NCBI GenBank assembly: GCA_029561555.1
Contig: JAKQXH010000095.1
Span: 10,124 to 74,123, forward strand
Source: Candidatus Omnitrophota bacterium
GTDB taxonomy: Bacteria > Omnitrophota > Omnitrophia > Omnitrophales > Omnitrophaceae
Length of the DNA stretch: 64,000 nt
Direction of reading: 5' to 3'
The position numbers and the translations under genes are program-made. The notes below the pieces were generated by a model. The model saw nothing but the letters and a program-made list of their open reading frames with translations, searched no databases and was not told where the DNA came from. How positions within the stretch are numbered: the stretch's first letter is position 1; every line of letters begins with the position of its first letter. This document shows, one piece after another, positions 1 through 25,693 of the stretch.

Positions 1-3000
1 TTTCTCCCTGCGCCACTTCGTTAAAATACTCCAAATATCCCGGAAGGATATCGTCCATTGATTGCCGGACAAAACTCGCCGGATCCAACCCGAACCATCT
101 GCGGAATATTCTCGAAAGCCTTCCCCCCTTCGATTCGGCCTTCTCTTGATCAACAACTTGGTTCACCCATCCCAAGGTTTTTTCCCGCCATCTTTCTATT
201 CTCAATCGGTTCCAATCGCTCCGAATCCTTCCCAAAGCCTCCTGATAAGCTTCCTCCACCCGGCGAACCGCAGTCACGCGGATCTCTTCCAATTCTTCGT
301 CCGCGCCGAGACTGGCACCCCGTTCGGATTTCCGGATTTTCACGATGTACGCGTCGGGAGATACAGAATACATCGGATTATAATTATCCAAAATAGACGG
401 ATCATATCCCGAAAGCATCTGAACATTCCCCTCATCATAGCCGGCTTGCTCCATAAACTCCCGCCATTGCCTTCGAGTCCATTCGGTCCTCAGCCCCCTC
501 ACATTTTCATAAAGGACCAGCTCGCCTCCGGGTTCCAGCCTGTCGAAAGCTTTCGCAATCGCCCTGGCCCGAAGCTTGGGTGGAAGATACTTGAAAACAT
601 TTCTTTCGATGACCAGCGCGAATTTTCTTCCCACGCCATCGATCTGATCGGCGGAAAGCGGCAAATAAGTGACGGCCAGTCCCATTTTCCGGGCGTTCGC
701 GCGCGCTTCATCCAAAGCGCCGGCGCAAGGATCCGTTCCGTAGATCTCGCTTGCGCCATCCTGCGCCGCGGCAAAGCCCACGATTCCGCTGCCGGTCCCG
801 ATATCCAAAACCGACTTCCCGCGAAATTCCACTCCGGCTGACTTCATTTTTTTCAGTATATCGCCGGACATACCGGCCAAATCTTCCGGAGAATACGGGT
901 AAGACGGTTCATGGTCGTACGAATGCTGGAATTCCCTCGCAAGAGCCTCCTCATACCACTCGCCGTACGCATCCCACCAAATCTCATCCGCCCGTTCCTC
1001 CCCTGACGCAAGCAGTCTGCCCGGATCGAAACGTACCGAATGCTTATCCTCCCCCTCCCACTCAAAAGCGGTTTCTCCCGAAACGGATCCGAATGAAAAA
1101 CCGGGAACCGGCTCCATCGAAGCGGGATGAGAAAATCCGGTCAGAAGAATGAATTCCTCTATCTCCGCCAGATTGCGGAAAAACTGAGCCTGCAATTTAC
1201 CAAAGTCCCAAACGGCCCCCGGAATCGCCCGTTCTATTCCTTCTTGATCGCGAGCCGATTCCGGTTCGTCCGATGCTCCAAGACTCTGCGCCGTCATAGC
1301 ATCACCGCTTCCTGATTGCGCAATAATCTCCTCCAACTTATCAACAATCGCGCCAATAGCAGGCTCATCGATATTCATCTCCAATGAGCCGGTTTTTTCG
1401 TATATCCAGTCTTCCCACTCGTATTGACCGAACGGTATCCAAACGACATCCTGAATGTCCTGGTAATGCCGGCAAAATCGGACAAGCCTCTCTCCCGCTT
1501 CTTCGGAATCATACCCCCGCGCCTTTAATCTTTCATAAACAGGAGCGAGAAAATACCAAAATTGGCTGAGCAGCTCGGATTCCTTTGTCAGCAGCCACAA
1601 TCCTTTCTCGTCGGCCAGTCCCACTTCTCCGGGATTCATCGCTTCCAGAAACGCGCAGGCCGCTTCCCGGGTTTTTCTGGCGGATAAAAATATGGCGATG
1701 GCTTGACCGGTACGTTTCTCCTGCAGGACCCGCCTTCCGTTCTCCTTCCGAAGAAACGATTTAACGGCCCGATACGCGTCATCCGAAACAAGCAGCGCTT
1801 CCTGCAATTTTGTTTTATACATGCTTTGATAACCAAGCTCCTGAAACAGCGCCATCAGCTCAGGATCATCCGCTATTTTTTTCGCCCTCACATCCAGCTC
1901 AGCCGGAAGCATACGCGTCTCGGCCAAAACAAGAGGCATGGCAATATGCAAACCCGCAAAACCGGGAAGCACTTTCCGCACATTCTCAAAAGTCCCGATA
2001 TATTCAATGATGTCACCGAACCGGGGATGGTTGAAAACAGCGTTCGCCGCTTCCTCCAAAGGCGCATCCGCCGCTATCTCTCCAAAAATCGAGCTGAGCA
2101 ACCGGGTTATTTCTTCCGATTGTTCGCTTGCCTCACCCGGCATAGCCGCAGATTCTCCCGCTGCCGGATTTTTTTCGGATTGAGGCCGCGGTATTTTTTT
2201 GAAAATCGTTCGCAAAGCTTTAAGCGTAAGCACCGGAATGTAGCGCCAGCCCAACGCCTTCCAAGTTTCCACCTCGGCCAACGCCCACTCGATTTCCTGC
2301 TCAATCGTCCATGTCCGGGATCCCCGGTCCGGCCCCATTTCCGCGGAAAGATTGTCGATAAATCCCGGCCGCCTCAGAAACAAGACTTGTCTGACATAAT
2401 CCTTGTTCACTTCTTCAAGAGGAAGCGGGCGGGGGCCGGAAATTGACATCTCTCCTTTTAGAACATTCAGGAGCTGAGGCAATTCATCGAGTCCGGTCCG
2501 TCTCAAAAACTTCTGAAAGCGGGTGGAATTCCGGTTTTCATCCATTGTCCTGAACTTAAAAGCCCTAAAAACCTTCCCTTTAAAACCGGCCCTCTCCTGC
2601 CTGAAAATAATGCTTTGTCCTGACCCGCGCAAATCAACCCAAAGAACAGCGGAAATGATCCCGCTTAAAATAATCGCGGGAAGGCTGAATATCATCAAAC
2701 GGAAAACATCCGCGCCCCTGAACAATTCATTCTTGAACGGTTTCTCCACGTAAGGCATCTCGACCAAAAGCTCGGGATAGAGATATTTTCCGAGAGAAGC
2801 CGCGCTGTCGGTTTTGGTAAACGCAATTCCTTCCATCTCAACCAGAAGATTCGGGCGGCAGACGTCCGCAATCAGAAACAAAGCCGGAATTCCCGGAAAT
2901 CGGTCCGAGCAAATCTTTTTCACCGCTTCCATATGCTCCGGCTGTTTCACGTAAACACGAATCTGGGCCACATCACGCAGCGTCGCGCCGGCACGAATGC

Positions 3001-6000
3001 CGTGGGCCTCAAGATTCTCCCGGGAAATCAGGGCTTCGATATTTTCGATCATAATTTCCGTTTGCTCTTCTATTCCTCCGGCCACCGTCTGCTGGCCTCG
3101 AATTCCAGCCGTTCCCGAGATGAACAGCGTCACGTCCCCTCCGTCCACTACCGCCTTGGCCCGCTCAAATTTCGGGGTCGCCTTTTGTTTCTGCGCATCA
3201 ACCGCGACACCGACCAAGACCTCCTGAGTGTACCGATGGGCATCAATCTGCTGGGGATTTTTGATCGGAACCACTTTCGAATCGTCGCGCGCACTTCCGA
3301 AAGCGGTAAAAGCAAGAACCACGCCGCCGGTGCTCGTCCCGATTCCGGTCGCCGCAGGATATCCGTTCGTAAAACTTGCCGCCGCATACCATGAAGCGCG
3401 TACATCGTTAAAGATCTGATATTTTTGACGCTCCCCGTCGAGCCCGACGATGTCTTCGATATAATTCCACTGGCGCACGACATCGGAAAAAGTCAATCCT
3501 TCCGCCTGAAGAATACCGTTCATGATCACGAATGAAGCTTGCGAGGCCTCGTAAGTTCCGGTTGCCGTTTCATCCTGAATCCCGCCCGCATAAACCCACT
3601 TTGCTCCGTCCTGCTCAACCACCTTGTAATGGTAAGTCCCGCCGTCACGGGAATACGATTTCGACTCAATCGACACCGATTCTTTCTTCGGGACCAGCAC
3701 GATAAATTCCGTCGTGACTTTTTCGCCGTCAGCCGGATGCTGGCCGATAAAATTCACCGGCGGCATCGATTCACCGTAAAAATCTTCAAGCACCTTTTGC
3801 ATGGCGTATTTCTCCGTGAAATGATTCGCGTCATCTTCCGCCCGGATAAAAACATTCTGCGTCATCACATTCGAGAGATTCAATCCCCGTGCCGCGAGGG
3901 CCGCTTTCACTTGACCGAGACAGTCCTCAAGCTGTTCAACCGCCGTCTCGCCTCTGACCGGTTGGATGCTGAAATAAATCTCGTCGTAACCATCCATGTC
4001 GACCTGCCGCCGGGAAATCCCCTCCCGATCTCCGCCCCCCATGCTGTTGGCCGACGGTAAAGGCAGCTCTCCGGGAAAAAATTTCACGCTGAGCCGGGCG
4101 GCATTATGAGATTCAATATAAGGTTCCGTAATCACAAGCGGCCTCTTCCGCCTCAAAGCGTTCCGGACCCGGTCGATACCGACAATTGCCGGATTATATT
4201 GTTTCCCCGACCGGACCCAGGGAATAAAATGGACATTGGGGAAATAATCCGTGCGAATGCCGTATTCCCCGTTGAAACTCAGCCACTTCAGCCATGCGGA
4301 GACCTCCTCCGGACTGAGACCGAAATTCTCCTGGGCTTCCTCCCGGAGAACCGCTTGAACGGTTCGGATATCTTCCAAAGGAATTTTCGGAAGGATATCT
4401 TCAAGGATCTCCCGGCCGGAATCGTCAAAACGCATACGCATCGTTCCTTCGTTCAGATAAAGCGTTAATCTCGAAACGGCGGAAGCCAGTTGTATCATCG
4501 GATCACCGATCCGCCGTTTCTGTTCAATCCTGGAATTACCGGAAATAATCGCAACCGGTACCCGCTTGAGCATTTTCATGAACACATTCCGCATTTTGGT
4601 CGGAGAAGAAAAACCCTCCCCCCAATTCTCAAAGAGGGTCCCGTCAATATCGGAGGCCACCATCCCTTTCCGGACAAGCATCCTCAGATCGATTTCCACA
4701 CTCCGGTTTGAATCCATTCCCTTACCCCAAATCACCACGCTCTTCTCTCCCGATTCAAGCGCTTCTAAAATCTGAGCAAGAACCCTCCTTGTCGCTTCCG
4801 GACCCGAACCGATCCAAAGAGTATTCGCTTTCGCCTCTTCTGAGCGCATCTCCGGATTCGTATCAACCGAAAAAAGAATCAGCCGTTTCCCCCGTTTTTC
4901 CAGATCCAGTTTAGCCTCGATAATCGAATGGTCATTCCCGGTCAGCTCGGAATTCTTGTAGAACTCGTCCCCGAAATAAAGGCCCAAATCATAATTCCCC
5001 ATCGAAAAGAAATCCCGGATCGCGTACCCCTTGCCGGAATTTTGATGAGCGATATCGATCGTCGAGAAAGTCGTATGCCGAATTTCGTAACGTCCTCCCA
5101 GCGCCCGGTCCAGCTTGGCCGCAAGATTTTTCCGCACATCATGCGTCACCCCGGGAACCGGCCCCCCTTCGATGGATTTCTCTCCCAAGCTCGAAGCAGA
5201 CCGCCGCATTTCTTCCAAACCCGCCTTGAGCGTTTCCATGAACGCGAAGGGCTGGGGAAAAATATGCCGCAAACTTGCGCCTGGGAAATTGAAAGGGATC
5301 AGCTCTTGTTCGAACGTCGCGATCTCGGCTTCCAAAAACCGGATCGCCTCGGGCGGATTATCTTCGTAATATTTCCGCACAACTCTCAACGTAATTCCCG
5401 CAAGACTTCTTGCCTTGCCGGCATTGAAATCAGCGATACCGGATTTAACCCGGTCAAAGGCTTCATAAAGCGAATCGTTCTTGTGAGGCACTTCCGTAAT
5501 TCCGGGATCCGTAACATAAACGTTCCCGGTAATTTCTTCGCGCATGATGTTGTTTAAATTTTCCCTTACGTCGGTGATGCGATAAGGAAGGCGCTTGGCA
5601 TCCAGTTCTTCGATCAGAAGGGCCTCGTAGGCAAGTTCCCAGTCGCCGTCGTTAAGAAGCTGGCGAAGCGTCCGGCCGTAAATCCATTGAGCGGGCAAAA
5701 TTCCGTACTGAGAGTTCCCGGAAACAGGAACAAACCCGGCAACTCGGGGGCCCGATCCGGCCTCCGTCAGTTTCCGGGCCATTTCCAACTGAATCGGCGG
5801 CATTTGTCCCGCAAAAAACCCGATTCGGTAAGATTGACCGCCCGCCTCAACGCGAACCGGAATCAGATCGCGGGACGAACCTCCCCGTGGTTCGATATTT
5901 TCAATGAAAACTTTTATTTCGGAAGAATCATCGATCTGGGCTTGCGGCATGAGAACTTTCAAAGTCCGGGCGACATACCGGGGATCAGCCAGTTTTTGCG

Positions 6001-9000
6001 CCAACAAATCAAGTAAAGGTTCCCGGAAAGGCCGGCCCTCATTGATATGCTTTTCCAATTCGTTTTCCAGTTCGCCAAGACTGGCGCCCTTCTGTTCAGT
6101 GGCTTCGGAATGAAGATAGGCAGTTCCCCCTTCCGACTCTTTTTTACCTTCCGGTTCAGGAACAAGCGCAAAAACGGCGAGAGAAACCGCCCCTAAAAAC
6201 AGCAAAACATTATCGGCGAGATAAAACAGCGCCGTTGCAATGCCAATCAATCCCGCTACGGCCAGAGAAGTCGTCCATACTCTCTGCCAGGCAAATGAAA
6301 TCTCGGGCTTCAAATTCTCAAACTCTCGCGCCCGGGGATTTTCCCCGAGCAACGTCCGCCGCAAATCATCTTGTCTCATAATATCCAGTTGAGCGGCGGT
6401 CATGCGTTTGATCCCTTCCGCCGGAATGGGCATGTCCTGCCATTGCTGAGCGGCCCGATGCCGCCGCAATCTCTGCGCCGGGGTTTCTTTCACTTCCGCT
6501 CTTTTTGCGACTTTCCGGTGAAGATAAAAAAGCCCTCCCGCCGCGATTGCCCCCAAAAGAACCGGCAGCATCGTTTCCGTCGCACCGAGCGACTGGGCGG
6601 AACTTGTCCCGGAATCTCCGGTCGTGCCGGCCCGCCTCAATTCCCGTTCCCCGAGCTTTTCCCTCAATTGAATTTCAAGGCTGGCAATGATCCCTGCCAA
6701 CCGGTTGGCTTCGCCATCCAGCATTCCGGCGGCTTCTTCCAACGGGTCAATTGCCGACGACGGCACGCTGGTTTCCAAATTCGTAATCGCTTCGTCCAAT
6801 TTCTTTTTTATTTCTTTCCGGACCGGCAAAATCGCGCCGCTAAAGTCGGAGGAAATTTCTTTTAGGCGCACGATATCGGAATCCAATTCATCGGAAAATA
6901 AAACATTAAGCCGTTTAATTTTTTCCGTAACCTTTCGGATATCCGCCGCGAATTTTCCGTATTTCGCGACATAGCCGCGTTCCGATTCCAACTCATGCTC
7001 GATCTGCCGGATCCGGACCTCCAGCGGATCTTCTTCGGCGGCAGCCGATGCCGCCATTCCGACATCGCGCCAAGTCCCGTCGGCCCGCAAAAGCTGAATC
7101 CGGGCTTCCGGCCGGAACGCGAGTTCTAATTCGATCGCCGGTTCCTTTTTCCGGAAAATGCGGATTGAATATCTTTGCACTTCCCGGCTGGAGACAAGAT
7201 TTCTTCCCGCAATCGTCTGCATAATGCTGTGATAAACCTGAAGCAGGCGGGGAAATGTCGTGTTCCGCTGCGCGGGGTCCCGCCATAACTTGGCAAAATC
7301 TTTCGCCGCCTCCCGGTGCTCTTCCATCTGCCCCAGCCGGTCGATCATGAAGCGGGCCTTCTGATTACGGGTATCCCTCGGATATGGCGCGGGGTAGGTA
7401 TATTTAGTCCCTTCCCGGTCAGTGTAGGAAAAATAGCTATGTCTCTGCCGGTCATCGTGCAATATCTCAGCCAGTTGGCTTTTTTCATCCCCCGCATAAT
7501 CAACCCGGATGGACGTCACGGCATCAGCGGCCAAATCAAGGCCCAACCGGTTTTCTCTGACTAATCCCGCGATCTTTTCCCTCGCCGGGACAGGAACCCA
7601 ACGGCTCCAGGTGAATTTAAGCCCCGCTATTTCTTCGTCGGAAAACGCCTGATTGCCGAGGCTGGCGCCTTCGGCAGCCGCGTGTCCCGCGATTTCAAGA
7701 AGTTTGTCAACATACCGCTCAATCACTTTCCACTCAAACGAAGTTCCCGGTCTCCCGTCGATTTCTTCAAACTGCCATTGAATCAGCCCAAGCAACCGGT
7801 CCTCAAAAAGAACGGGCCACCGGGAATCAAGGAAAGAGTGCTCGCCTTTCAAAAAATAACCCGTCGGATCGTGGGGTGAGACGGAAAAAGTCCCAGACCG
7901 AATAATCTGAAGATACCCCTCCGGCGAATGATGCTTTATAAACAAGGTAAGCGGCACCGAAGGAGTTCCCTTTGCCGATTTAAAACCAAATCCAATCGTA
8001 TTGGCGCCAAGCACATAGAGCATTCCCTTCAGAAAATTCTTCGCGGCCGCGCGATTGGTGGCAATTTTTGCCTTTCTCATTAATTCAGGCTCGATCACAT
8101 AAACATGCCCGTCAAACGCATCTTCAAGCAGGCCGGCCATATCCCGCGCCGGCATCACATGAATCCCGACGGCAACCTTCAGCGTACGGGCAAGCGTCTG
8201 AATTTTCGGAACCATCCGCGTTTCAAACTGTTCAAAAGTCTCCTCCGGAGATGCGGGACCTCTTCTCATCGCGAGCGGGAGCAAGGCAGGAGCCCTCCCG
8301 GGCTGAGGCCGGGAAAAATCAGCGCCGAGAAATTCGAGATAATCCTGTGCCTTTTGTCTACGCTGGTCTTCTCCTCCCAGGGACTGTCCCTCTCTCTCCT
8401 CCTGCCCCAAGCTTGAAGCCTCAGCAGCCAGACCGATTTCCTCCCAGCCATCGAAATCCCAGTACCCTTGAGAATTTTCAAGGCGAAGCCGGTTTCCTTC
8501 TCTCCGGAAAAGATCATACTGGCTTCCGCCGTCCCAGAAAGTCCCGTTCAAAAGAGCGCCCCCTTCCGGAAGGACATTCCCAATCCGGCTCAAAGCGGAT
8601 TTAATTTTCTCATCCGAAAAATAGCTGTATTTCCCTCTCATCAAAAGACCGGCCACTCGGACAAAATCATGCCGCGGCGCAAGGGGTTGGAAAACATCAT
8701 GCTCCGCAAACGCAAGACGGTCGGGATTTTCCCGGGCAAACTCCTCCGCCTCAGGATTGATCAGGCTTATGATCCGAGTATCCGTCTCTTCCGTTTCCGG
8801 ATAATCAAAAAACATTCCCAACTGCCCCGCAAGCCACTCCAAGCTCCCCTCGCCGGTAGGCTCATGAAGGTTCGGGCCCACGAACAACTGGAGGATCTTC
8901 CCCTGCGGATCATAAACACAGGTAATATTTCCTTTTTTGCGAACGATGAAATTCAGAACTTTATCGTAACCGACGACTCGAACGTTTTCTTCCCGGTACC

Positions 9001-12000
9001 GGAGAGCCATCTCATAGGTGCCGGTTCCGTCGGAAACCCCAAAATCACCGATGGTCATCGCTTCCCCGGGATGCCCCGCTCGAAATCGCCTAAGTTCTCC
9101 GTCAATCACTTCAAAAGATGCCTCCAACCGTCCTTCCCAGGTTCTCCGGTTGATCGTTAAATTGTTGCCGTCCGCTTCTCCGCTAAACATAAGAACTCCG
9201 AACTGAATATGCCGGAGGATATTGATCAAATCTTTTCTTTTCCCCGGCTGGGACTGAAGGCGTCCGTCAAAATAAAGCTCCCTCAGCTTCGCGTAGGAAA
9301 GGAGGCTTCGGTTCAACATAAGCGCGATCACCGTCAATTCGTACCGCCGGTCGTCCGCGGGAAGAGCAAGAAAATCCGAAATTAATTTTCCGACATCATA
9401 ATTTCCGAGCCGCAAACGCGCATCCTTCTGATCGTCGGAAAGCGGGAATCCGAACGAGCGCATCAGATCGATTCCGAGAAAATGTTTGGCAAGCGCCCGT
9501 GCGTCATCCGCGGCAAGTTCACCCAAAGAAGCTCCCACATCAGCCGGCAGCGGGAAGCGGATGGTAATTTCGACATTTTCGCCGCTGTTTCGGGCTTCAA
9601 TCGTGCCGCCACAGGCCTCGACCAAATCCCGGATCAGCGCACCGCGATGCCACGGAGCATTGCGATCTTCCTTGACCTCAAATATCGTCTCGGGATCGAT
9701 CGCGCCTTTAAACGTAAATCGAAATACCGTCTGCCCTTGCTCTTCAACAGCATGGATATAAAAATCCTCGTTTTTCGGGGCATTCCAGAAAATATTCAAA
9801 AAGATATTGTCGATGAAAAATTCCTTTCCCCAAAGGCGCAGTCCCGGATCCGCATCAGCATGAAATTTTCCGCGTTCATCCATGTGCCGAACCTGAGAAC
9901 CGAATCTTCCCATGCCCAAAATCTCCGAAACGCCAAAGAACCGTTTCTCTTCAACCAATTTTCCCTCGCTGCAAAAAAGAAGAAGGTCTCGTCTGTCTTC
10001 GTAAAACCCCGACAGCACCCTTACAAGGTCCTCATACGCCTCATCCCTTTGAGAAGCCTCCACATTCGACAACTCCCGAAGCATCTTTTCATAAATCTCG
10101 ACATGGCTTCTCATGGCGCCAAGCCACCCCTCCGCCCTTTCCACAATCAGGGGATCCGTTTCAAACCCCGTAAATTGCTGATCGGAGGACGTATTGGCAT
10201 GGACCCACCACATATAACCGCTATGCTGTCCTTCATTAAAAATCCGGTAAAGTTTTTCACTAGTCTCCGCGGACGCGCTAAGGCGTTTGATCATGGGCCA
10301 TAAAAGAAACCCCGTCCCCGCCATTTTGTGGACCATATACCCAACCAATCTCAGCGTTCTTTGAAACCGCACTTGGGCTTCGGGGGTAACCTCTTCAATC
10401 CCTTTTTCCGCATTGGCTCTTGAGCGAACAAGAATCCCCGCCGGTTCCCTGCTGCTCCATCGACTTTGGGCGAGGACTACGGAAACTTGACTTTTAAGAA
10501 GACTTTCCTCCAAATTCTTTTTAAGCGTCTGGTCATCCGTGGCCCGCAACATCGAGACCAGCACGCTTTCAATCTCGTCCTGCGTCACTCCCATTTCAAA
10601 AATCAAACGCCAGATACTGTCGCGATAATTCTTATAAAACATTACTTCATGAAACGTCTTGAGCATTTCCTCGAAATCATCCTGATGACCGCTTTGGCTT
10701 ATCTCCTGAACTTCCATCAACCGGGCGTAATGCGCAGCGTGTTGGCTATAGGCGCGAATTTCCCCCGCAATCACCGGTGCCAATTCGTCGGCTTCGGGAA
10801 TTCCCTTTGCTCGCAAAGCATGAAACACTTTTTCGGCAAGCTTCTCCGGGACCTCTTCCGCGGGAACTTTTTCCTTCCATCGAAGCGGCAATCTCAAACG
10901 GAATCGCGCGCCCTGCCCGGCATTTTCCGCCTCAATACTGCCCCCGAACATTTCCATAAGCCTTTTGGCCCAGTAAAGGCCGTAACCGGTCCCGTGTTTT
11001 TTGGTCGTGAATGTTCTTTTGAAAAGCCTGGGAAGGATTTCGGGCGGAATCCCGCCGGCTTCGTCTTCAATCTCAACCCATACCTCATTTTGAGCTTCGT
11101 TCATTCGGAAATAAATTTTCGGATTGACCGCTTCGGGTTTCCGCTCGCGATATTGCTCGAGGGCGTTTGCCAAAATCTGCGTTACGACAAAAATCATTCC
11201 GTAAGGAAGCTCAATCCCCGAAAACGCGTCCCGGTCGAAATGACTTTCAACGGTTACTTCTTCCCCGTAATCCTCAATGAACGCCCCTGTGGTATTCCTT
11301 AAAAATTCATCAAAGGTCACCGAACGGTTCACGCCCCCCACGACCGCGGATAACCTGAGAAGGTTCTTCGTGTACGTGCCGGCCGTCTCCATCGCAAGGC
11401 GAAGATGCCCGAGTTCCCCGGAATATTCCGCAAACGTTTCGCGGTCCTCCGCGCCGAGTCCCGCAATTATCCGTTCGATGCGGGAGGCAAGCTGGGCCGC
11501 CGCAAAAATACGGCCTTTGTAATTGTGAACCCGGCGGTTAAAAGGAAGCCCCTGATCGACATTTCTGAAATTCAGAAGGTCCCGCAGCATCGCATGGTAT
11601 TGATTCAGCTGCCGGACAATCCCCTGATCCTCAAGATGATTTCCGGCCTTTTCAAGCAGGCCCTTCAGTTCCCGGAGAAAAATGCTGAAACGCGCGGCGG
11701 CATCGCTCACCCCGCCGTTCAGGAAACTGATATCGGCGGGCTTGGACATGGGCCGCCTCGGCATGGCGTCTAAAATCGGCGCGCTAAAATCGAACGGTTC
11801 TTCGAGCTGACGGTAAATTTTCCTCAGCAGCTCGACATGGAACTTTTCATCAACTTCCTTCTGCGCATAATCGAACCGGTAGCGGTTCTTAACATCCGGA
11901 CGGATGTCCCGGATCTCGCTGTCATAACCGGTAATTTGGTCTTTGGAAATAACACTGCCCGAGACAAAAATAAACGGCCCCCGAAAATCGAGTTTTTCGC

Positions 12001-15000
12001 CCTCATAAGCGGCATCCGGTCCCATTCGCAAAGAATGAAGGGCATCGTAACCGTCCCGGTTCCTCGCCCCCCCCTCCTGCTCGGAGCCGAATTCGTAATC
12101 GCAAAGGACGATGATTTTCTCATCCGGCACCCCCTCGGCGCGCAGCTGTTTCACCTGCGCGAGGACTTCATCCACACTCCCGACGGTGTGGATATGGTCG
12201 AAAAACCCGCCGACAACGCTTCGAATCGTATCCTGAATGAACGGCTTATCGTCGGCGATAATCACATGGCAATCACGGTAGCGGGCGGTTATTTCGGGCG
12301 CAATTCCCGATTCTTCGGGCGTGATCTCAAGAGGAGGAAAAGAAAATGTCTCCCCCCATGCCGGCTCCCCGGATTCTTCGCCTTCCGCCGCCTTTTCGCT
12401 CGTTCCGGGAGCAGATGCTTCGCCATATTCCCCGCGCATTGAAAAGGCCTTGACGCTTTCCTCGAGTCTCCCGACATCCGCCCCTTTCAATTGGACGGAA
12501 ATCTGCCCTTTTTGATATCGGCTCCAAAGATCCGGGTATTTCTGAAGCTCGGCGATAACGGCCGAATCTTCCCCCGATAAAATGACCACCGCACCCGTGA
12601 AATCGCGCGTTTCAAAAGCCTGCCTCAAAAACCGGACGCCGTTATCGCTTCGATCCGTGTCATAATTCCCAAGCTGAAAATCCACTAGAATAAAATTGAC
12701 CTCCGCATCCGCGGTAAAAGCTTCGAGGGCTTCCTCCCGGGTAGCGGCTGCGGCAACGCCCTTGACTTCCCCCATGTCATTAAGGTCGAGTTCTATAGCC
12801 GAACGCGTTGATTGGTCATCATCCAGCATCAAAACCCGTATTGGGGTCACGCCTGGGTTTGACCCCAAGCTTGCGCCTTTAGTTGCCGGAAGATTTTTAT
12901 CCCGCCGCTCGGCCGTCGCCTGTATCACCCGGTTGAATTCCGGCCATAAGGTCCGCACGCTTTCGAAAAAGTCTCGGTGAATTTCAAGAAGTTCGACGTC
13001 TGTCTCGGCTGAAATCGTCGCCGTCCGGACCCCTTCTTTCGTCATGAGCGCGATCTCCCCGAAATAATCGTCTTCCTTCAGGGAAAATTTTTCCCGCGCC
13101 GTCTTTCCGTTTCGCTTGATTCTTTTTTCGCCCCCGACCCGTCCTCTCTTGATAATGAAAACACTCTCCGCCTTGTCACCCTGCTTCAGGATCACGCTTC
13201 CCGCCTTGAATGAACGGTGCTCGGCCCGTGCCGCGAGATACGCCAAGGCATTGTAGCCTAGGGGTTCGAAGGGATTGTAGGGGCGGGGATTCTGCTGCAT
13301 TTTCTCGAGAAAACCGATGTTTTCCCTGGTTCGCCGGATTCGCTCTTCCGCTTCCGGCGTCCGGATCAGCCGGTCAAACTGATCCGCCGTCAAAGTCAGC
13401 GTCGTTACTTTCGAAATCGCCCGGACCGTGGCGCCGCGTTTTTCGCCCGTCACAAGCGCCAGTTCCCCGACCGACGTCCCTTTCCGGACATACGCCAGCA
13501 CCTTCCCGTTCTGAATCACGGCGGCATCGCCCGAGAGAATGATGATGAAGTCCGAACTTCCTTCCCGCGCGTAAGTCCCCTGTTCGATCATGACCTCCTG
13601 AGGCTTGAATTCCCGTATCGCTCCCGTCTCGAGAATCCTCTGCAATTCCTTCTGGCTTTTTTCGGAAAGGAGAGAGACGAGACTCACCACCTGCAGGAAA
13701 TAATTCCGGCGGAGTTCCCCGTCCGAAGGCAGAATCGTTTCGGTTTTCATCGGCCTCCCCGTAACGATTGAAATATTTCTCTTTAAATTGCCGTCCGGGT
13801 CCGTGAAAAAATATCGGAAGCGGGACATCACGCGAGCCAGGTCCCGGCCGCGTAGGCCTTCCTCCCGTAGGACTCCGAGATAATCCGGCGATCCCCGCAA
13901 CGCGCTCAATTGCGAGCTCCCGGGAAAACCGATCACACGGGAGACCCTGCCCCGGGAATACCCGATTTTGAATCCGATCGAAGGATAGTGCGTGGGATTA
14001 TGCCGGATCTCGATGCTGACTTTTTCCCCGTCCGGCAGGGAAAGTTGATTTTTCATAAAATCCAGCAGCGGCACAAAATCGACATATCCCGCCTGTTCGA
14101 TGTCTTGCCCTAAAATGGTCTCGGCCCGTTTCAGGAAATCAAAATACACGGGAAAGGACGTCAGCAATGTCGTTTTCTTCCCCGTAAAAAGCCATTTCAA
14201 AAGCGCGCTGTCTTTCCCCAAGCGGTTATTGGTCAGAAGCACATACGGGACATCGTCTTTGGTAAGATTCAAAAGTTCTATTTTCTGAAGGGCTTCGAAA
14301 GTCGGATCCACCAGAATCCCCTTCCCCCCGACCCACACGATAAAACTCGGAATCCGATGCCCTCTTCCCGGTGCTTCACCGGTATCCAAAACCGTATAAC
14401 CGAAACGGGGCCTCAGCTCTCCGGCAAGCAGTTCCCGAACACTCTGCGGGATAGTTCCCGAAACGTGATATGGCCTGCGATAATCGACGTCGATGATGCG
14501 CTCTTCCGGAGCCGGAATCTCGACCGGCCGATAACCTTGCCCCGGAAATGAAGGCGCGACATAGGAAACTTCCCGCACCGTGAATCTTTCCTCATCCCGT
14601 TCGGCGCGAATAATTTCCACTTCGCCCAAAACCCGGCCGGGCCGGCGCGCATCCACCATCGGCACCCTGACCTTGTTCTCTTCGAAAGGAATAAAATTCA
14701 CAAAATCGGAAAGGCGGCGCCGGCCTTTTCCGCTTCCCGCCGCGGACAGATTCTGCGCCGCGCGTATACTTGCCTCAACCGCGGAAATTTCGCCGAGTAT
14801 CTCCGGAGCATCCGGGGCCAGTCCTCTTTGCTGCGCCAAAGCCCTTTCCCATCTTTTCCGAAACGTTTGCCAATCCGCCGACTCAAAATCGACTCCGAAC
14901 ATCGTCTGCTCAAGGTACCCTTTCAGGGCGTCCATCTGCTCTTGAGTCAGAACGAGATTAATCCGGATACCGCTCCGCATCGTGAACGCGAAAAACTCCA

Positions 15001-18000
15001 ACACCGATCCCAAATCGGCGTAATTGATGCCTCCCCGGAAAAACGCGGGCGGAAGAACAAAGGTCACCGGGAAATCCTTCCCCGAATCCAACTGCCCGCG
15101 AAGATCTCTCAGAGTTTCAAACGGCAGGGTAAATTGAATTTTCCCGAATGCGGTTTCCACGATCTGATATCCGGCGAGTTCTTTTTCGACGTCGGGACCG
15201 AGCGCCGAGCGAATCTGTTCCCGGAAGCGCAGAGGAAAGTGGCTGAAACGGTATTTGAACGCGCTCACCGCCGCCCTTCGGAGTTCTTCCGGCGAAAGTC
15301 TCGCCGCCTTGGCAATGTTCACGTATTCTTCGAAAAGACTCGTCCCGAAAATCCCCGAATCGTCCGTGTTGATCGTCACGATCGGCTTCTTCCCGACCAA
15401 CCCGTCGCTCGCGGTCGTTCCGTTCGGGAAGCTGTGCCTCAAAAACCTTCTCAAAGGATGATCTCCGTAACTCGCCACCGGTCCGATAAACACATTGGAG
15501 GTCGGATTCGCCTCTATCACAATCTCCCGCTCCGCGATCCGGTTCAGGACATAATTCTGCCGCGCCGCCAAGTTCCGGACGGCGTCTTCATCGTAGCGAA
15601 TCGTCACAAAACTGCCCTGATAGCGCGGAGCGTCCCTCATCAGCAGTAATTCCGAAAAAAGCCTCCGTTCCTTCGCCGCATCAACGGAAGCCCCTCGCAA
15701 AATCGAATAAATGAGCGGCGCAATTACCCCGTCCACCTGCTTGTATTTTTTCCGGTACCCGCGAAGTTCCCTTTTCAATCTCCGCGTATCAATCGCAAGC
15801 CCCGCTTTGCCGAGCCGCCAGGCGTCGAATTTAGCCGCTTTGAGATCGTAATAAATCTGAAAAAGCCTTTCGCTCACATGTTCCCGCCGCTCCGTCCCCA
15901 AAAACTGCGAGACATCCACTCCGACGACCAACCCGTGGCCGATCCGGTTGATCCCCAGCTCAATCGCCTCGTCCACATGGCGGATCGCGCTTTCGATCGA
16001 CGTATTTTCAAAATCCTCGCCGACATGATATGTGAGCCCAAGCTGGGGCTCCCCCCGTTCGCCGCGCCGCCGGTTGTAATCCTTGACCTGCCGGAAGACA
16101 TCAACAAAATGCGGCGGAACTTTCAATTGCTCCGCGTTGGCGACGTCGAACCCGACCACGTATTCCCTGAGTTCGGGATAGAGCGCCGAATAGTATTCCA
16201 GGATATGAAGCAAGGCCTGCACCTGCTTCGCAATTGTCCCCATGCTGTGATATTTCTCGATCGTGACGATAATTTTCGTCTCAAGGCCGACTTCGTCGTT
16301 CAAAAGGCGGGTGTTGACCTCATTTTCCGCGGCACGCAATCCCCGGATCGTCGCGAGAAGCCTCTCAAGTGTCAGCTGGATCAGTTTCTGCTCGTCTTGT
16401 TCCCGCGGCATGGAGGTGCGGAGTTCAAGAAGCCTGACCCCTTCTTTGTAGTTCCGGAGCGCAATTCTTCGCGCGACATCCTCGATAATTTCGGGAGACC
16501 CTTTGGAAAGACGCCCCGCCACTTCATAGACCACCACGAAATCTTCCAAATGCCCTTTCTTTTCCGGACGATATTGCGTAAAGTGGGTAAATTGATTTTT
16601 CAGTCCTTGCAATTCACTCTGAAGCTCCTCCTGCCGGCTCGCCGAGGCTTTTCCTTCCTCCAATTGTTTTCTAACTTGCCGGGCACGGCTCAGGAGGCCG
16701 TTCAAATCCACCGGCTGGCCGAAGATCTTGCTCAGTTCGACATTCAAATCGTCCCAGCGGACGTCGTTTCTCATCAGCGCGAGAGACCACAAATCTTCCG
16801 GATGGATCGATCCTCCGAAATGCGCGTGCCCTTCCGCCAGCGGAATCTGTTTCAGAAAAGCCTCGACTTCGCTCCAGTCCTCGCCCAAACTCGCGCCGCG
16901 AGCCGCGATCACCGTTTTCTCCTTCTGCTCAAGAATCTTGATCATCTCCCCGGCTAACGCTTTTCCGGTCATCCCGGACAAATCGGCAAGAAGATCCCGA
17001 TAGGGGGTTTGCGACAACGCCGCGGCCGAAAGGGCAAAAATCTGTTTTCGTTCCGTCACGCTCAAGTCATCTTTCCCGTTCAGCCGGTTCAAAATCGCAA
17101 GCAGCGCAAAACGATCTCTCAGACCGAAAGATTCGTCCCCGGCGATTATTTGTTCAACGCCTGAAGGATCGTCAAAATAAAATGCGTACGCCATGATCCT
17201 CATCCCAAACTGGGGACCGTTCTTCTCATCCCGTTCGCCGGGCATTTCATCCCCCGTCAATCCGGGTACTTCCGGAACGCCACCAAGACTCGCGGCGACC
17301 GCTCCCGCAAGTTCCGGCTGATGCCTTCGCAAAACAGCCCCTTTCGCGTCTTCAATCGCGCGGGCGCGAACCGTAGCGGCGGCCGCTCCCCACATGGCTT
17401 CAAAATCCCCGGCCGGCATGAAATTTCCGGCCGGCATCGCTTCGGAAGTCTCGATTTTCGGAGCAACTCCCATCATCGCGTTGAGATAAATCTCGCTTCC
17501 CTGTTCCGCCTTGGTAATCCTCGGTTGAATCGATACGTAGGAAATTCCCGCTTCCCGCGCCCATGTCTCAAGCCCCTGCGCGTGAAAACCTCCGGTCAAA
17601 ACGGCGGCCCCCGTTCTTTTCCCTTCCCGCATCGCTTCGAGAATCCTCTCCCGGAACGCCTCTTCCCGCTTCACGGCCAAACCGTAAAATCGGGCCGCAT
17701 TCTCAAAAACAGAGTCCATCTCCCCGGCCGCCCGCAGCCCGAGTTTTCCCGTTTTCACGCCCCGAAATTCGCCGATCCTTTCCGCAAGACGCGAAGGCGT
17801 CCGGCTCTCCCGATCCGCCGTAAGCCGGTCATAATCCCGCCGGATCAGATCCAGCCTGAGCAGTTTTTCGGTAAGCCAAACGTCACGGATCAACAAAATG
17901 GTTTCCTTCTCTTCCTCCCCCCGGGCAAGCCGGGAAAGAATCGCGTCCGCCAGTTTTTCCGTCTCATCAAAAACCGCTTGGGCGTTTACTTCCGCCCAAA

Positions 18001-19063
18001 AACTTTTCCGTGCCGCCCATTTTGAAAAATTCGGATACTGCCGGAAGTCAATCCCGCCTTTCGCGCTCTCATAAAGTTTCTCGAGAAGAAATCTGGGATT
18101 TTCGCCCGCTTCCGTTCCGGTTTGCGCCTTTAACTTCCGGAACGCTTTCAGCAATTTCCCGTTCACCTTCCCCTTCAAAGCCCCCTCCAGCGCATCCGCT
18201 TCTTCGCGGACCCTCAAAACATCCAGCGATGATTCCAATTCCTTCATTTTCAGGATCCGGACCAGAGAGGGATACTCGTCCTGCCAGGCGGGATCTTTTA
18301 AATCCAGCGACAGAAATCTCTCCGAAAATTTGCAAAGCACTTTCAGAAATTCCAGAATGTCTTTCGAGTCCGACTCCTCATACCGCCGCCACGATCTGAC
18401 AAACGCCCGCAACGCTCCGGTCAACCGGCGGTGTTCCGCGTCTCGCAATGCCGCATGAATACCCCTGAAAAATTCCTCCCGTTCGTCTCCCCGGCCGACC
18501 ACCGCCCGAAACAAATCGATGTCCTTCCGGTACAATCCGGCGTCTTCGATCCCATGCGCCCGCACGCCGTCCGTTTCCCCTTTTCTGAAAAAGCTTTCCG
18601 CCAGGAGGAACTTTTCCATCCCGTTGGAATGCCCTTGCTTCATCAGCGAGTCAATGACTTCAAGATTCCAGGAAACCTCCTTGAAGAAGTGGAATTTTTC
18701 CGGGCGGAGTTCTCCGGTAGAACCTTCCAAAAAGAACTGGCGAATGCCGTAATGCGCCCGGAGATAACTCAGAATTTTTTCAATATTCCGCTGGGCTTCC
18801 GGGTTTCCGTGAGCGTCCTGAATCTGAATGATCAGACCGGAATCCGAGGCAGGATAGTGGGAACACTGAATCTCACCCAAACGGGAAGGAATTTCGATCT
18901 CTACCGGGACGGCCTGAAATTCTTTCGGACCGTTTTGCAGCTGCAAAACGGGAGCCGCATAAGACACGGTCTGAACGAGAAAAGTAATAATTGCCAGGCA
19001 GGAAATAATCCGCCGGAATTTTCTGAAAAACCGTTTTTCGGAATCTAAAGTTTTGGGGCTCAT
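1..19063 (-). CDS. Giant multidomain protein with N-terminal Sec signal/anchor. Partial: the C-terminus lies beyond the left window edge, with >=6354 aa in the window.
   Basis: Manual reverse-complement translation. ATG at 19063-19061, in-frame TAA upstream at 19117-19115, and no ATG/GTG/TTG between them. The frame has the codon top coordinate = 1 mod 3. I read all in-frame plus-strand triplets from 2-4 up to 19061-19063 and none is TTA/CTA/TCA (= TAA/TAG/TGA on minus). N-terminus [45 protein letters not shown]. Left-edge peptide ...[40 protein letters not shown]. The ORF track has no minus-strand entry in this frame anywhere in 1-19063. The other five frames give only short R/P/S/F-rich ORFs. 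Many textbook domain motifs occur in this single frame (see domain features). Confidence 0.92.
   Translation of the reverse strand, partial: [6354 protein letters not shown]
480..900 (-). other. Giant ORF domain: class I SAM-dependent methyltransferase
   Basis: [50 protein letters not shown]...[13 protein letters not shown]...[15 protein letters not shown]. Motif I is VLDIGTGSG (786-812). An acidic post-I residue and the post-III PGG are present. Confidence 0.75.
2210..2740 (-). other. Giant ORF domain: monotopic phosphoglycosyl transferase (bacterial sugar transferase, WbaP/PglC-type)
   Basis: Checked for 2461-2760. Re-entrant helix [23 protein letters not shown], then [27 protein letters not shown]...[28 protein letters not shown]...RRPGF. 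All signature motifs are present (KFRTM, DELPQL.NV, GPRP). Confidence 0.8.
2830..3990 (-). other. Giant ORF domain: three tandem YjgF/RidA-like repeats (FkbO/Hyg5/XanB2 chorismatase-like architecture)
   Basis: Repeat 1: [38 protein letters not shown]. Repeat 2: [36 protein letters not shown]. Repeat 3 (checked for 2881-3180): [68 protein letters not shown]...[16 protein letters not shown].G and the terminal E.E.iA are typical of this fold. Confidence 0.5.
4250..5150 (-). other. Giant ORF domain: HAD-IIB-type phosphatase motifs in permuted order
   Basis: Motif III/IV-like [12 protein letters not shown]...[25 protein letters not shown] (about 4925-5090) lies N-terminal to motif I [15 protein letters not shown] (DIDGTL about 4640-4657, checked) and motif II [10 protein letters not shown] (about 4521-4558). 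Confidence 0.55.
5450..5900 (-). other. Giant ORF domain: protein-kinase-like/APH-like fold (weak)
   Basis: [27 protein letters not shown] resembles a catalytic loop (D-x-x-x-x-N) followed by a DFG-like metal-binding motif. The upstream beta-rich segment [17 protein letters not shown] could be the N-lobe. Speculative. Confidence 0.25.
6160..6572 (-). other. Giant ORF: internal transmembrane segments (1 + 2)
   Basis: [21 protein letters not shown] (about 6519-6572) and [41 protein letters not shown] (about 6160-6290). Both are long uncharged hydrophobic stretches flanked by basic residues. Confidence 0.6.
8480..9100 (-). other. Giant ORF domain: CheR-like SAM-dependent methyltransferase (tentative)
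   Basis: [21 protein letters not shown] (compare CheR iWsaGCStGEEpYSlA), ...[55 protein letters not shown] (compare hnLl...fDlIfCRNVlIYF...L.pGG.L). Checked for 8941-9120. Confidence 0.5.
9540..9830 (-). other. Giant ORF domain: second, degenerate HATPase_c-like fold
   Basis: [47 protein letters not shown]...[35 protein letters not shown]. It has the kinase-ATPase topology and the C-terminal GG.I....G....I.FP pattern but lacks DxGxG. Likely a pseudo-ATPase. Confidence 0.3.
10890..11800 (-). other. Giant ORF domain: histidine-kinase-type core (helical region + GHKL/HATPase_c)
   Basis: Translation checked codon by codon for 10861-11220: [23 protein letters not shown] (N box) ... [21 protein letters not shown] (G1) ... 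[41 protein letters not shown] (G2). The upstream helical segment (about 11300-11800) may be a DHp. The H-box is not canonical. Confidence 0.8.
11900..12275 (-). other. Giant ORF domain: receiver (REC)-like domain 2 (divergent)
   Basis: [47 protein letters not shown]...[10 protein letters not shown]...PFIFVSGSV. The DD pair, the D in LCDYEF and the S in VSGS follow REC spacing. Confidence 0.45.
12500..12850 (-). other. Giant ORF domain: receiver (REC)-like domain 1
   Basis: [58 protein letters not shown]...VVILSGED. It has the acidic pocket DDD, a candidate phospho-acceptor D in VDFQ, and a conserved S. Confidence 0.6.
12960..13270 (-). other. Giant ORF domain: cyclic-nucleotide-binding domain 2
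   Basis: [37 protein letters not shown]...[42 protein letters not shown] (FGEIAL...RTAT motif). Confidence 0.75.
13370..13690 (-). other. Giant ORF domain: cyclic-nucleotide-binding domain 1
   Basis: [103 protein letters not shown]. This is the classic CAP/Crp-effector pattern, including GELAL...R.ATV.A. Confidence 0.8.
13950..14420 (-). other. Giant ORF domain: metallo-beta-lactamase-fold-like with degenerate metal motif
   Basis: [52 protein letters not shown] ... [15 protein letters not shown] has the MBL strand/loop pattern. The HxHxDH position reads NNRLGKDS, so the domain is probably non-catalytic. Confidence 0.3.
15240..16870 (-). other. Giant ORF domain: adenosine/AMP-deaminase family (amidohydrolase fold)
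   Basis: All hallmark motifs occur in canonical order: [17 protein letters not shown] (about 16815-16850), [10 protein letters not shown] (about 16130-16160), TYHVGEDF (about 16013-16033), NRIGHG (15932-15946), IEANPTSN (15494-15514), [11 protein letters not shown] (TINTDD at 15359-15376). Confidence 0.8.
17520..18830 (-). other. Giant ORF domain: Tiki/TraB/ChaN/erythromycin-esterase-superfamily-like (tentative)
   Basis: Paired motifs [25 protein letters not shown] (DAHGNPEAQ at 18791-18817) and [16 protein letters not shown] (about 17575-17600). They resemble the N- and C-terminal GxH-type motifs of that superfamily. By-eye assignment only. Confidence 0.3.
18956..19063 (-). other. Giant ORF domain: Sec-type signal peptide or signal anchor
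   Basis: aa 1-36 are [36 protein letters not shown], followed by AP. There is a basic n-region (KRFFRKFRR), a ~12-aa hydrophobic core and a small-x-small c-region (S-Y-A). Confidence 0.6.
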
Positions 19064-19253
19064 TATTTGGATAATCGCCTTAAATAACAGTCTTTTTTTA
19101 TATGTAAAAAAAAGTTAACACATGAATGCCCCTTAGTCAAGATAACCAAGTGTATATATTCAAAATATTACATATACCAAGCCGAGATCGAAAACCCACG
19201 TATCCGATTGAATTTAAATAATTTAGGTATTCCTGTGCGAAAAGGGTCGTTTC

Positions 19254-19434
19254 GCTAAGCGAATTGGCGAAGGCTTTCTAGGAAGATCCGGGCGAAGCTT
19301 GAGAGGGGTGGCCGTAGCCCCGCCAAGCATCATAGCGGGAAATATCGGCGGGGCCCCCGAAAGTGAGCCCTTGATCTTCCAAAATCCGGAACCTCTGAGC
19401 GAAGCGAAACGATCTTTTCCCCCGCCCTTTTCCT
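19254..19434. repeat. Structured GC-rich intergenic repeat, copy A (~181 bp)
   Basis: gctaagcgaattggcgaaggctttctaggaagatccgggcgaagcttgagagg...gatcttttcccccgcccttttcct aligns with copy B 227 bp downstream at roughly 90 percent identity by eye. Internal complementary segments: GGAAGATC/GATCTTCC, AGAGG/CCTCT, GCCCCGCC/GGCGGGGC. Confidence 0.8.
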
Positions 19435-19480
19435 CCCGCTTTTATCTTTCCAAATCAAACCAACAGAAAAAGATCATTTT

Positions 19481-19663
19481 GCCAAGCGAATTGGCGAAGG
19501 ATTTCTAGGAAGATCCGGGCGAAGCTTGAGAGGGGGGGGGCCGTAGCCCCGCCGCGTATCATGGCGGGGAATATCGGCGGGCCCCCCTGAAAGTGAGCCC
19601 CTGATCTTCCAAAATCCGGAGCCTCTGAGCGAAGCAAAACGATCTTTGCATCCCCCTTTTCCT
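19481..19663. repeat. Structured GC-rich intergenic repeat, copy B (~183 bp)
   Basis: Direct repeat of copy A. It ends about 37 nt before the likely start (19700) of the oxidoreductase gene. The ORF-track start at 19646 lies inside it. Confidence 0.8.
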
Positions 19664-19699
19664 GTCGACTTGGCTTGGTTTTCGGGTAAGATACGAAAC

Positions 19700-22552: not shown

Positions 22553-22590
22553 AAATAAAAGTAAGAGGGTCTCACCTTTTTGTAAGGACC

Positions 22591-22640
22591 ACAGACTACA
22601 GTTTGAAGACTAAAGATAAAAAAGCTAATAGAGGAAGGGG
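22591..22640. repeat. RAAGACY heptamer element, copy 1 (~50 bp)
   Basis: acagact acagttt gaagact aaagata aaaaagc taatagaggaagggg. It aligns position-for-position (41/50 by my count) with copy 2 at 23021-23070. Confidence 0.7.
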
Positions 22641-22655
22641 TATAAGCTATTTAAT

Positions 22656-22985: not shown

Positions 22986-23020
22986 TTAAAGTTCCTTTTA
23001 GGGGGCAGCCCCCCTTTGGT

Positions 23021-23070
23021 AAAGACTACAGACTGAAGACCAAAGACAGAAAAGCTAGTAGAAAAAGGGG
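23021..23070. repeat. RAAGACY heptamer element, copy 2 (~50 bp)
   Basis: aaagact acagact gaagacc aaagaca gaaaagc tagtagaaaaagggg. Same orientation as copy 1. The two copies bracket the cupin gene. Confidence 0.7.
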
Positions 23071-23082
23071 CGGAGCCCCTTT
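23064..23082 (-). terminator. Rho-independent terminator of thrH
   Basis: AAAGGGGC-gga-GCCCCTTT hairpin one base after the thrH stop (23084-23086). On the minus strand it is followed by TTTTTC. Confidence 0.6.
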
Positions 23083-23083
23083 C

Positions 23084-25660: not shown

Positions 25661-25693
25661 GTTCCCGAGACTCAAAAATGAAAGGAGCCGCCG

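Follow-up and report, generated by a model that had tools for sequence, protein, structure and literature searches.

A giant Omnitrophota gene joins signalling modules in frame at a recurrent SLG peptide and may encode a polyprotein-like precursor

Giant genes of Omnitrophota have been described by West-Roberts et al., with a type protein from Velamenicoccus archaeovorus (bioRxiv 10.1101/2023.11.21.568195). In that work HATPase_c is among the commonest domains of the encoded proteins, post-translational cleavage is suggested, and the cleavage points are stated to be unknown. Whether such a gene yields one working chain or a set of cut products is a recognised puzzle. Among large precursors outside this phylum, the MARTX toxins have processing sites in unstructured segments between effectors, with a small-Leu-small consensus (PMC2900308). 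Our literature search found no paper tying polyproteins to Omnitrophota. Here we analyse a gene of 22.1 kb, coding for 7,365 residues, in a Candidatus Omnitrophota bacterium; most of it lies in the window, by which we mean the whole stretch of 64,000 nucleotides that was analysed (assembly GCA_029561555.1, contig JAKQXH010000095.1, positions 10,124 to 74,123). The product is divided into protein-sized modules whose boundaries carry a short peptide, [GA][AQS]SLG. Judging from sequence comparison, we put the probability that the independent modules are made as one polyprotein-like precursor at about 60%.

The gene resembles the Archaeovorin-type genes in its Omnitrophota host, in being one very long open reading frame (ORF) that mixes methyltransferases, a sugar transferase, HAD and HATPase_c domains, and in its N-terminal signal or anchor and few internal transmembrane (TM) helices. 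It differs in size (7,365 residues and 22.1 kb, against above 30,000 residues and above 90 kb), and the SecA-DEAD, C39 and S8 domains were not found in it by Pfam. The documented junction motif, its lineage-specific replacement, its association with an N-terminal domain and the gain and loss of cassettes at the motif are further differences. These four points, together with a family of tandem receiver (REC), histidine kinase (HK) and pseudo-kinase architecture (REC-REC-HK-pseudoHK), are what is new here. An earlier note on this DNA, made from the sequence alone, knew of no description of such an arrangement. That holds only in part, since giant multi-domain Omnitrophota genes are published and their cleavage is already proposed, and it stands for the junction motifs.

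Compared with MARTX, the product is likewise a large precursor with variable cassettes, and its S-L-G peptide fits the MARTX small-Leu-small consensus. In contrast to MARTX, no Peptidase_C80 or RTX repeats were found by Pfam in any block of the 7,365-residue protein, the RxExR peptide that takes the place of SLG in relatives does not fit a protease with Leu at P1, and the Omnitrophota host is no known animal pathogen. The resemblance is in a possible mode of action, not in family. With viral polyproteins (picornavirus, nidovirus replicase) the gene shares one ORF, a short motif at unit boundaries and a candidate hydrolase encoded in cis. Unlike them it lies on a cellular chromosome amid housekeeping genes, and its protease and its cleavage are putative.

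Within the window, the gene occupies a single stop-free frame on the minus strand at 2..19114, in which an ORF scan puts the first ATG at 19063. For residue i of the frame, the codon begins at window position 19114-3(i-1) on the minus strand. The complete product was recovered by an exhaustive HMMER search as the protein P0015 (7,365 residues), whose numbering is the frame numbering minus 17 and which is identical at 6,354 of 6,354 window residues. The parts needed for the argument are as follows.

2..19063, minus strand: giant gene, window part (6,354 residues), a stop-free frame that continues past the left window edge
17282..19063, minus strand: N-terminal signal-peptide-like helix and conserved domain, then the first ASLG; homologues P0009-P0014
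12863..16882, minus strand: block C, 1,340 residues; adenosine deaminase, an unassigned region, a metallo-beta-lactamase (MBL)-like region and two cyclic-nucleotide (cNMP)-binding domains; GASLG on both sides
12863..12877, minus strand: junction GASLG between blocks C and D; block D family homology begins 2-10 residues past the site
9521..12862, minus strand: block D, 1,114 residues, a conserved protein family; two REC domains, a DHp/CA core (dimerization and histidine phosphotransfer, catalytic and ATP-binding), a helical part and a degenerate DHp/CA core
9521..9535, minus strand: junction GASLG between blocks D and E; homologues of either side separate here
8405..9520, minus strand: block E, about 370 residues, class I S-adenosylmethionine (SAM) methyltransferase-like and distantly CheR-related; homologues at 35-43% identity
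8375..8419, minus strand: double junction, ASSLG 8405-8419 and GQSLG 8375-8389; a single AQSLG here in the orthologue L014
SLG-type junction peptide sequence: ATKGASLGSNPG

The ASLG sites that the earlier note had placed at 12877, 9535 and 8419 are exact (12863-12877, 9521-9535 and 8405-8419), and the copy at 8375-8389 is additional. In the window part of the protein, [AQS]SLG occurs 13 times against 0.48 expected, a count that none of 5000 shuffles reached, and ASLG is the tetrapeptide with the greatest over-representation in the protein. The full product contains 15 [AQSR]SLG sites, which divide it into about 15 blocks of 133-1,340 residues. The sites fall in short linkers, 5-15 residues outside domain ends, and for one linker the model is disordered. 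The first site coincides with the point where the AlphaFold2 (AF2) model of the N-terminal domain turns disordered (folded to residue 588, disordered from 589). The codons for Ser, Leu and Gly vary from site to site, and therefore selection acts on the peptide. An origin of the motif at the DNA level, as a recombination site or repeat, was rejected because the codons differ between copies.

A second class of motif is found in relatives. RxExR (RSELR, RPEAR, RSEQR and others) lies between blocks in P0019, P0023, P0029-P0031, P0033, P0035, P0036, P0010 and the long ORF of contig L012, in 4-16 copies where 0.1-0.3 would be expected (reached in 0 of 300 shuffles). The two classes occupy equal seams. 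Upstream of the methyltransferase module, ASLG/ELAADDAR aligns with RSELR/NLLANDAR, RHEAR/DLKADDAR and RAELR/TLQAGDAR, where the stroke marks the seam. P0035 has GRAEMRE and VRPELRE on the two sides of block D, with GRAEMRE at the place of the GASLG of 12863-12877. Enrichment of a junction motif of either class was confined to proteins with the N-terminal QDxH...GGFH domain; the nine long proteins that lack this domain show none. The association of domain and motif is thus a plain observation.

The blocks behave as units in their homologues. We used window 8375-10882, which covers the second kinase core and the methyltransferase block, as an HMMER query. P0015 aside, the relatives fall into two disjoint sets, one matching query residues 1-450 and the other 452-822, and the split is at the GASLG site. 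No homologue matches both the kinase block and the methyltransferase block; each matches just one of them, and the alignments stop at SLG sites. The sequence next to block D or block E differs in every homologue, and both blocks are found at other positions in other long proteins. Stand-alone genes also exist, two for block D (P0028, 1,179 residues; P0034, 1,143 residues) and one for block E (P0017, 407 residues). Word-indexed searches with the 2,015-residue cassette or the 836-residue segment gave generic matches or none, as long queries saturate the prefilter; HMMER found the homologues. Single-protein scans of block D against genome contigs and of the C-terminal block against metagenome contigs returned nothing.

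A diverged orthologue from another metagenome sample, L014, has a single open frame of at least 5,280 residues. Its identity to P0015 is 66% in the signal peptide and N-terminal domain, 87% from the adenosine deaminase to the kinase and 74-77% in later blocks. L014 lacks three whole blocks: one of 131 residues, the methyltransferase block (E), and one of 170 residues that contains three TM helices. In every case the missing stretch is bounded exactly by two SLG motifs. The shared junctions all keep SLG while their flanks diverge, and past protein residue 5425 the blocks of P0015 and L014 are unrelated. Since an odd number of TM helices is lost, the topology downstream would be inverted if the product were one chain, and the loss of this block therefore argues for separate products. 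On this comparative evidence, blocks D and E, and putatively block C, are independent evolutionary units that recombine as units.

Could the frame be an assembly artefact, with separate genes joined by misassembly or by loss of a stop codon? Two assemblies do break inside it, at window position 12428. The NCBI metagenome-assembled genome (MAG) GCA_035356955.1 has the gene split into 2,211 and 5,099 residues by a 10-N scaffold gap at 12427/12428, and JGI contig L007 ends at the same base. The break falls inside the acidic, hypervariable linker between the two receivers of block D, away from block boundaries; no part of the region varies more than this linker (62% identity to L014, with a ratio of nonsynonymous to synonymous substitution rates, dN/dS, of 0.39). 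Breaks at the same base in two independent assemblies suggest strain heterogeneity there. The independent JGI contig Ga0116249_10001695 runs seamlessly over 12428, matches window 9700-27714 at 99.95% and has the gene called as one 7,365-residue ORF. Full-length block D homologues are also continuous across the equivalent position, and L014 also keeps one open frame. Misassembly, which the earlier note had raised, was rejected on these grounds, and the artefact explanation as a whole is exceedingly improbable.

We believe that these data are best accounted for by a precursor of separate proteins. Three protein-sized modules (C, D and E) are concatenated in frame within the 7,365-residue product. 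The giant chain would be cut at or beside the SLG motifs, giving about 15 proteins, and the signalling modules would then work separately. More tentatively, an N-terminal domain resembling the TIKI and erythromycin-esterase hydrolases may do the processing or be coupled to the motif in another way. The earlier note had proposed either one large allosteric control unit or independent signalling proteins made as one precursor. The first is not borne out, as homologues match one block only, stand-alone genes exist and L014 lacks the methyltransferase block. The second fits all the comparative evidence, and the cleavage it calls for is predicted.

The alternative is a giant protein that stays uncleaved, in which the cNMP, REC and kinase domains control the enzymatic domains in cis and SLG is a preferred linker or hinge. 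A third receiver about 3,900 residues downstream (9.3e-9) could be a cis partner in such a chain. However, a linker needs neither a conserved pentapeptide nor its swap for the unrelated RxExR at equal seams in other lineages, and both motif classes are confined to proteins with one particular N-terminal domain. The loss in L014 of the methyltransferase and three-TM blocks, with the chain otherwise unchanged, fits ill with an integrated machine or a fixed topology, and blocks D and E exist as stand-alone genes. We consider an uncleaved chain unlikely, though it deserves to be kept in view.

Several observations weigh against a cleaved precursor, and the first two also speak for the uncleaved chain. 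Block D family members sit inside long proteins that have neither junction motif nor N-terminal domain (P0016, P0022, P0024, P0032, L013), and block D can therefore function without being cut out. Pfam recognised no protease domain in any block of the 7,365-residue protein. P0020 is an exception to the association of domain and motif, having the N-terminal domain and no enriched motif. The assignment of that domain to a TIKI-like fold draws on three weak signals, given below, of which the structural match is not significant, and the profile search of PDB sequences was empty. Block C is delimited as a putative unit solely by its two flanking motifs. Cleavage at the motifs is proposed from comparative data. 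Finally, the N-terminus is Sec-like. Junctions in the cytoplasm would be out of reach for a protease in the periplasm, unless the chain either passes to the periplasm as well or is cut before leaving the cytoplasm.

The N-terminal domain has invariant or nearly invariant residues in Q-[DE]-x-H, E-G and G-G-F-H. Its AF2 model is of moderate confidence (pLDDT 71.8). The best compact Foldseek matches, 3b55, 2rad and 6xcs (EreC), are erythromycin-esterase-like and not significant (E=0.31, probability 0.75). With Pfam, one family member matches Erythro_esteras at 6.7e-4 and another matches Cofac_haem_bdg, the ChaN model of the Tiki superfamily, at 0.065; a profile of the domain found nothing among PDB sequences. 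TIKI-superfamily proteins have His/Glu catalytic sites (2His/2Glu) and include site-specific endopeptidases such as RRSP, which is itself a MARTX effector (PMC6254334). We therefore regard the domain as a candidate hydrolase of the TIKI/erythromycin-esterase superfamily, and it might, on slight indications, be the processing protease. Two contigs show another arrangement of this domain. In L011:457-9086 and L012:1167-12529, the N-terminal-domain protein is a gene of its own (1,069 or 1,246 residues), with a very long ORF 69-117 nt downstream; that of L012 opens with a second copy of the domain.

Signal-peptide-like N-termini are widespread in this set. P0015, L014, P0016-P0034 and L013 all begin with a basic n-region, followed by a hydrophobic core and an AxA-like end; among them are the stand-alone kinase-block proteins P0028 and P0034 and the stand-alone methyltransferase-block protein P0017. 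Such starts contrast with the ATP-, SAM- and cNMP-dependent domains that follow, which are normally cytoplasmic. The same paradox of export and cytoplasmic domains has already been remarked for Omnitrophota giant proteins (bioRxiv 10.1101/2023.11.21.568195). A hydropathy scan, with judgement on one borderline hydrophobic segment and the basic loop downstream of it, predicts that the first ~4,100 residues, including the cassette, are on the trans side. A more speculative and rather improbable extension is that Omnitrophota secrete multi-effector polyproteins. In it, a Sec signal and a TIKI endopeptidase would free swappable cassettes at lineage-specific junctions (small-Leu-small in this gene, RxExR in others). 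The ATP-, SAM- and cNMP-dependent products, such as the two-receiver kinase, the cNMP-gated RdrB-like deaminase and the CheR-like methyltransferase, would act inside a host or prey cell instead of the producer, and the system would be a prokaryote-targeting analogue of MARTX. The extension is compatible with the data because the stand-alone modules carry their own signal peptides, because the topology prediction has the first ~4,100 residues on the trans side, and because cassettes are gained and lost at motifs.

Block D contains four domains of the two-component type.

12479..12841, minus strand: REC1; acceptor Asp codon 12680-12682
11810..12268, minus strand: REC2, divergent, with DYEFGSEQ; acceptor Asp candidate at codon 12098-12100
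10883..11677, minus strand: active-type kinase core; DHp His (FNRRVHNYKGR) codon 11525-11527; CA boxes N, G1 (DEAGGI), F and G2 (GTGYGL)
9542..10417, minus strand: second kinase-like core; DHp His (GYMVHKMAG) codon 10328-10330; CA fold with the N-box Asn kept, without G1 and G2

Ten homologues of the block were found, seven of them full-length, at 33-40% identity and with coverage of up to query residues 2-1112. In addition to the stand-alone proteins, the block is found in a 3,375-residue protein of the Omnitrophota single amplified genome AM-311-J02. As predicted from these sequences, REC-REC-HK-pseudoHK is a conserved family of ~1,100 residues, previously unnamed.

The two receivers are supported to different degrees. 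REC1 stays under the Pfam cut-off (Response_reg, PF00072, E=5.5e-5, 23.7 bits against 30.2) and has nine weak NCBIfam response-regulator matches. Its residues DD, D, S and K (in LDDD, LVDF, ILSG and QLKG) are invariant across eight sequences, so the receiver named in the earlier note keeps all its catalytic residues while missing the threshold. REC2 has no Pfam match, and its NCBIfam match is MctR at 0.035. When a profile of eight family sequences was compared with PDB, 13 of 17 matches were receivers, the best at 2.6e-3. REC2 has 36 invariant positions in all, among them DD, DYEFG[ST]EQ, SGS and K, and its dN/dS against L014 is 0.046. These results favour the receiver assignment of REC2, which Pfam does not support.

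The first kinase core is clear. Its HATPase_c match (E=4.1e-19, 69.5 bits against a cut-off of 26.4) upholds the kinase ATPase read in the earlier note, and all four boxes are present; NA, DEAGGI, F-x-x-F and GTGYGL are invariant in the block D family. Histidine kinases in PDB (FixL, YycG, LvrB and others) match down to 2.8e-9, and AtoS of NCBIfam matches at 5.3e-18. For the DHp part there is no Pfam HisKA match; the family has an invariant His in FNxRxHNYKG, and the LvrB and AtoS matches reach upstream of CA. The core is predicted to be a catalytically competent histidine kinase.

The second core has no match among hidden Markov models (HMMs). Its AF2 model, built from an alignment of 11 family sequences, is confident (pLDDT 86.5, pTM 0.85). 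Foldseek matches HK853, DivL, RetS and ZraS at E ~2e-8 with probability 1.00, and the 297 matches at or below 1e-3 are almost all histidine-kinase cores. The G1 (DxGxG) and G2 (GxGxG) boxes are missing in 11 of 11 family members, whose DHp His and N-box Asn are invariant in this core. The pseudo-ATPase of the earlier note is thus corroborated by both the fold and the family-wide absence of the boxes. The core has a kinase fold and is not a kinase, being predicted unable to bind ATP, and is most likely a phosphotransfer or regulatory pseudo-kinase like DivL and RetS.

DivL (4q20) and RetS (6dk7) are hybrid kinases whose DHp-CA fold is among the best structural matches of the second core, and block D likewise has receivers fused to the kinase. 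The order REC-REC-HK-spacer-HK' differs, with both receivers N-terminal to the kinase. So do the family-specific DYEFG[ST]EQ of REC2, the missing Pfam HisKA match and the signal-peptide-like N-termini.

A decaying fusion is another way to read these domains, with duplicated REC and kinase domains and the MBL-like region drifting after loss of function. The second core without G1 and G2, the MBL-like region without HxHxDH and a REC2 that Pfam misses look that way. However, all domains are under purifying selection against L014 (dN/dS 0.046-0.24, with 0.39 in the REC1-REC2 linker), including REC2 (0.046), the MBL-like region (0.069) and the second core (0.10-0.24). The same defects are present in 11 of 11 family members, which are just 26-37% identical over the second core, and that core models confidently as a kinase fold. 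The degenerate-looking domains are maintained features, not decay, and we give the decaying fusion hardly any credence. The two duplications followed by degeneration that the earlier note had seen are not confirmed either. REC1 and REC2 have no detectable similarity, a recent duplication being rejected at BLASTP E=0.11, and both keep the acidic pocket. The two CA domains match by BLASTP at 2e-6 over 28 residues only, and the degenerate state of the second is old, conserved and selected rather than a local decay.

Block C combines an enzyme with putative nucleotide sensors (Pfam A_deaminase 3.7e-26, cNMP_binding 1.1e-30). It is ~90% identical in L014, with dN/dS of 0.07-0.15. Its parts downstream of the deaminase are as follows.

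13715..14419, minus strand: MBL-like region; the Pfam match spans 14228-14347 (40 residues)
13361..13615, minus strand: cNMP-binding domain 1; PF00027 E=9.1e-14, 51.6 bits (cut-off 27.5)
13418-13468, minus strand: phosphate-binding cassette of domain 1, GELALVTGEKRGATVRA, identical in L014
12956..13216, minus strand: cNMP-binding domain 2; PF00027 E=1.3e-17, 64.0 bits (cut-off 27.5)
13007-13063, minus strand: canonical cassette of domain 2, FGEIALMTKEGVRTATISA, conserved in L014

Both cNMP-binding domains of the earlier note are well founded, scoring over the Pfam gathering threshold with intact cassettes kept in L014. As read from the sequence, the conserved Gly-Glu and Arg are present in GELAL...KRGATVRA of the first and FGEIAL...VRTATISA of the second. 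The MBL-like region is less secure. Lactamase_B (PF00753) matches at E=1.3e-3 with 19.1 bits, under the cut-off of 22.7, and no PDB sequence matches, so the family assignment is weak; the position of HxHxDH (14207-14233) reads TNNRLGKDS, as it does in L014. Presumably the module is a cyclic-nucleotide-gated enzyme, an adenosine deaminase with predicted cNMP binding. The best NCBIfam match of the deaminase part (15185-16882) is RdrB, the adenosine deaminase of RADAR anti-phage systems (6.3e-26), in a tie with a generic adenosine deaminase and far under the family cut-off. JGI contig L006 differs from the window solely by an 11-nt patch at 13314-13324, in the linker between the cNMP domains, which is probably a strain micro-variant.

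The motifs of block E are listed here.

9017-9052, minus strand: IGDFGVSDGTGT
8615-8662, minus strand: VRVAGLLMRGKYSYFS

The sole Pfam match of the block itself is Methyltransf_25 at E=0.1, and neither the Pfam nor the NCBIfam CheR models (PF01739/PF03705) match it; no CheR_N domain was detected. Of 50 remote homologues, eight match CheR in Pfam (best 3.9e-6), more than match any other family, with Methyltransf_25 next (7). The CheR-like label of the earlier note is therefore fair as a distant relation and weak as a direct one. The class I SAM fold signature is shared with CheR, and no chemoreceptor or CheB context was seen around the block. Its ...LLxxxYSYF... motif may resemble the NVLIYF motif of CheR.

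Beyond the window to the left, the C-terminal 1,011 residues of P0015 (listed range 6254-7365) include an HD domain (1.3e-7), the third, canonical receiver, whose Response_reg match is above threshold, two further SLG junctions and a terminal block with one RSELR and no family assigned. The last 300 residues of the long proteins are mutually non-homologous. A conserved C-terminal module of 274 residues was considered and rejected, equal block lengths being coincidental and homology present for P0023 and P0033 only. The last residues are -[AS]-Ala-COOH in 16 of ~26 long proteins of the set (one -His-Ala), and P0015 ends ...VRIAA; such an ending might serve as a degron or as a sorting signal at the C-terminus. 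Within the window, the block at 5183-6073 has no Pfam match and 81% identity in L014, and by eye its ...TDVRENLNNIM...VYVTDPG... stretch looks kinase-like, in the manner of aminoglycoside/choline kinases.

Elsewhere the window carries the genes of an ordinary bacterial chromosome: PFK, GlgB, DsbD, Dus, RlmN, CorA, glutathione synthetase and conventional two-component genes. Exact-sequence matches of two neighbouring genes, with the records HNV85455.1 and HNV85420.1, put the organism in Candidatus Omnitrophota (MAG GCA_035356955.1), and it is present in anaerobic-digester samples (JGI 3300009696, 3300010357, 3300025877; SRR21285878). The giant gene (start 19063, minus strand) and a FAD-linked oxidase gene (start 19700, plus strand) diverge from an intergenic region that contains two direct repeats of ~197 nt, 88% identical (19239-19434 and 19466-19663). 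In this upstream region Rfam gave a sub-threshold snoRNA match alone and no credible regulatory RNA.

For the puzzle of giant Omnitrophota genes, the locus offers statistically strong candidate junctions, a second motif class and a co-occurring candidate processing domain. The SLG junctions are the first concrete candidate cut sites for giant Omnitrophota proteins. L014 is a natural experiment, an orthologue that differs by whole cassettes excised at motifs. With the junctions, the two motif classes and L014, the question of one chain or cut products is therefore directly testable. Giant proteins can also be split rationally at the junction motifs before their structures are predicted. In the field of two-component signalling, a predicted REC-REC-HK-pseudoHK family with signal-peptide-like N-termini is defined by this locus.

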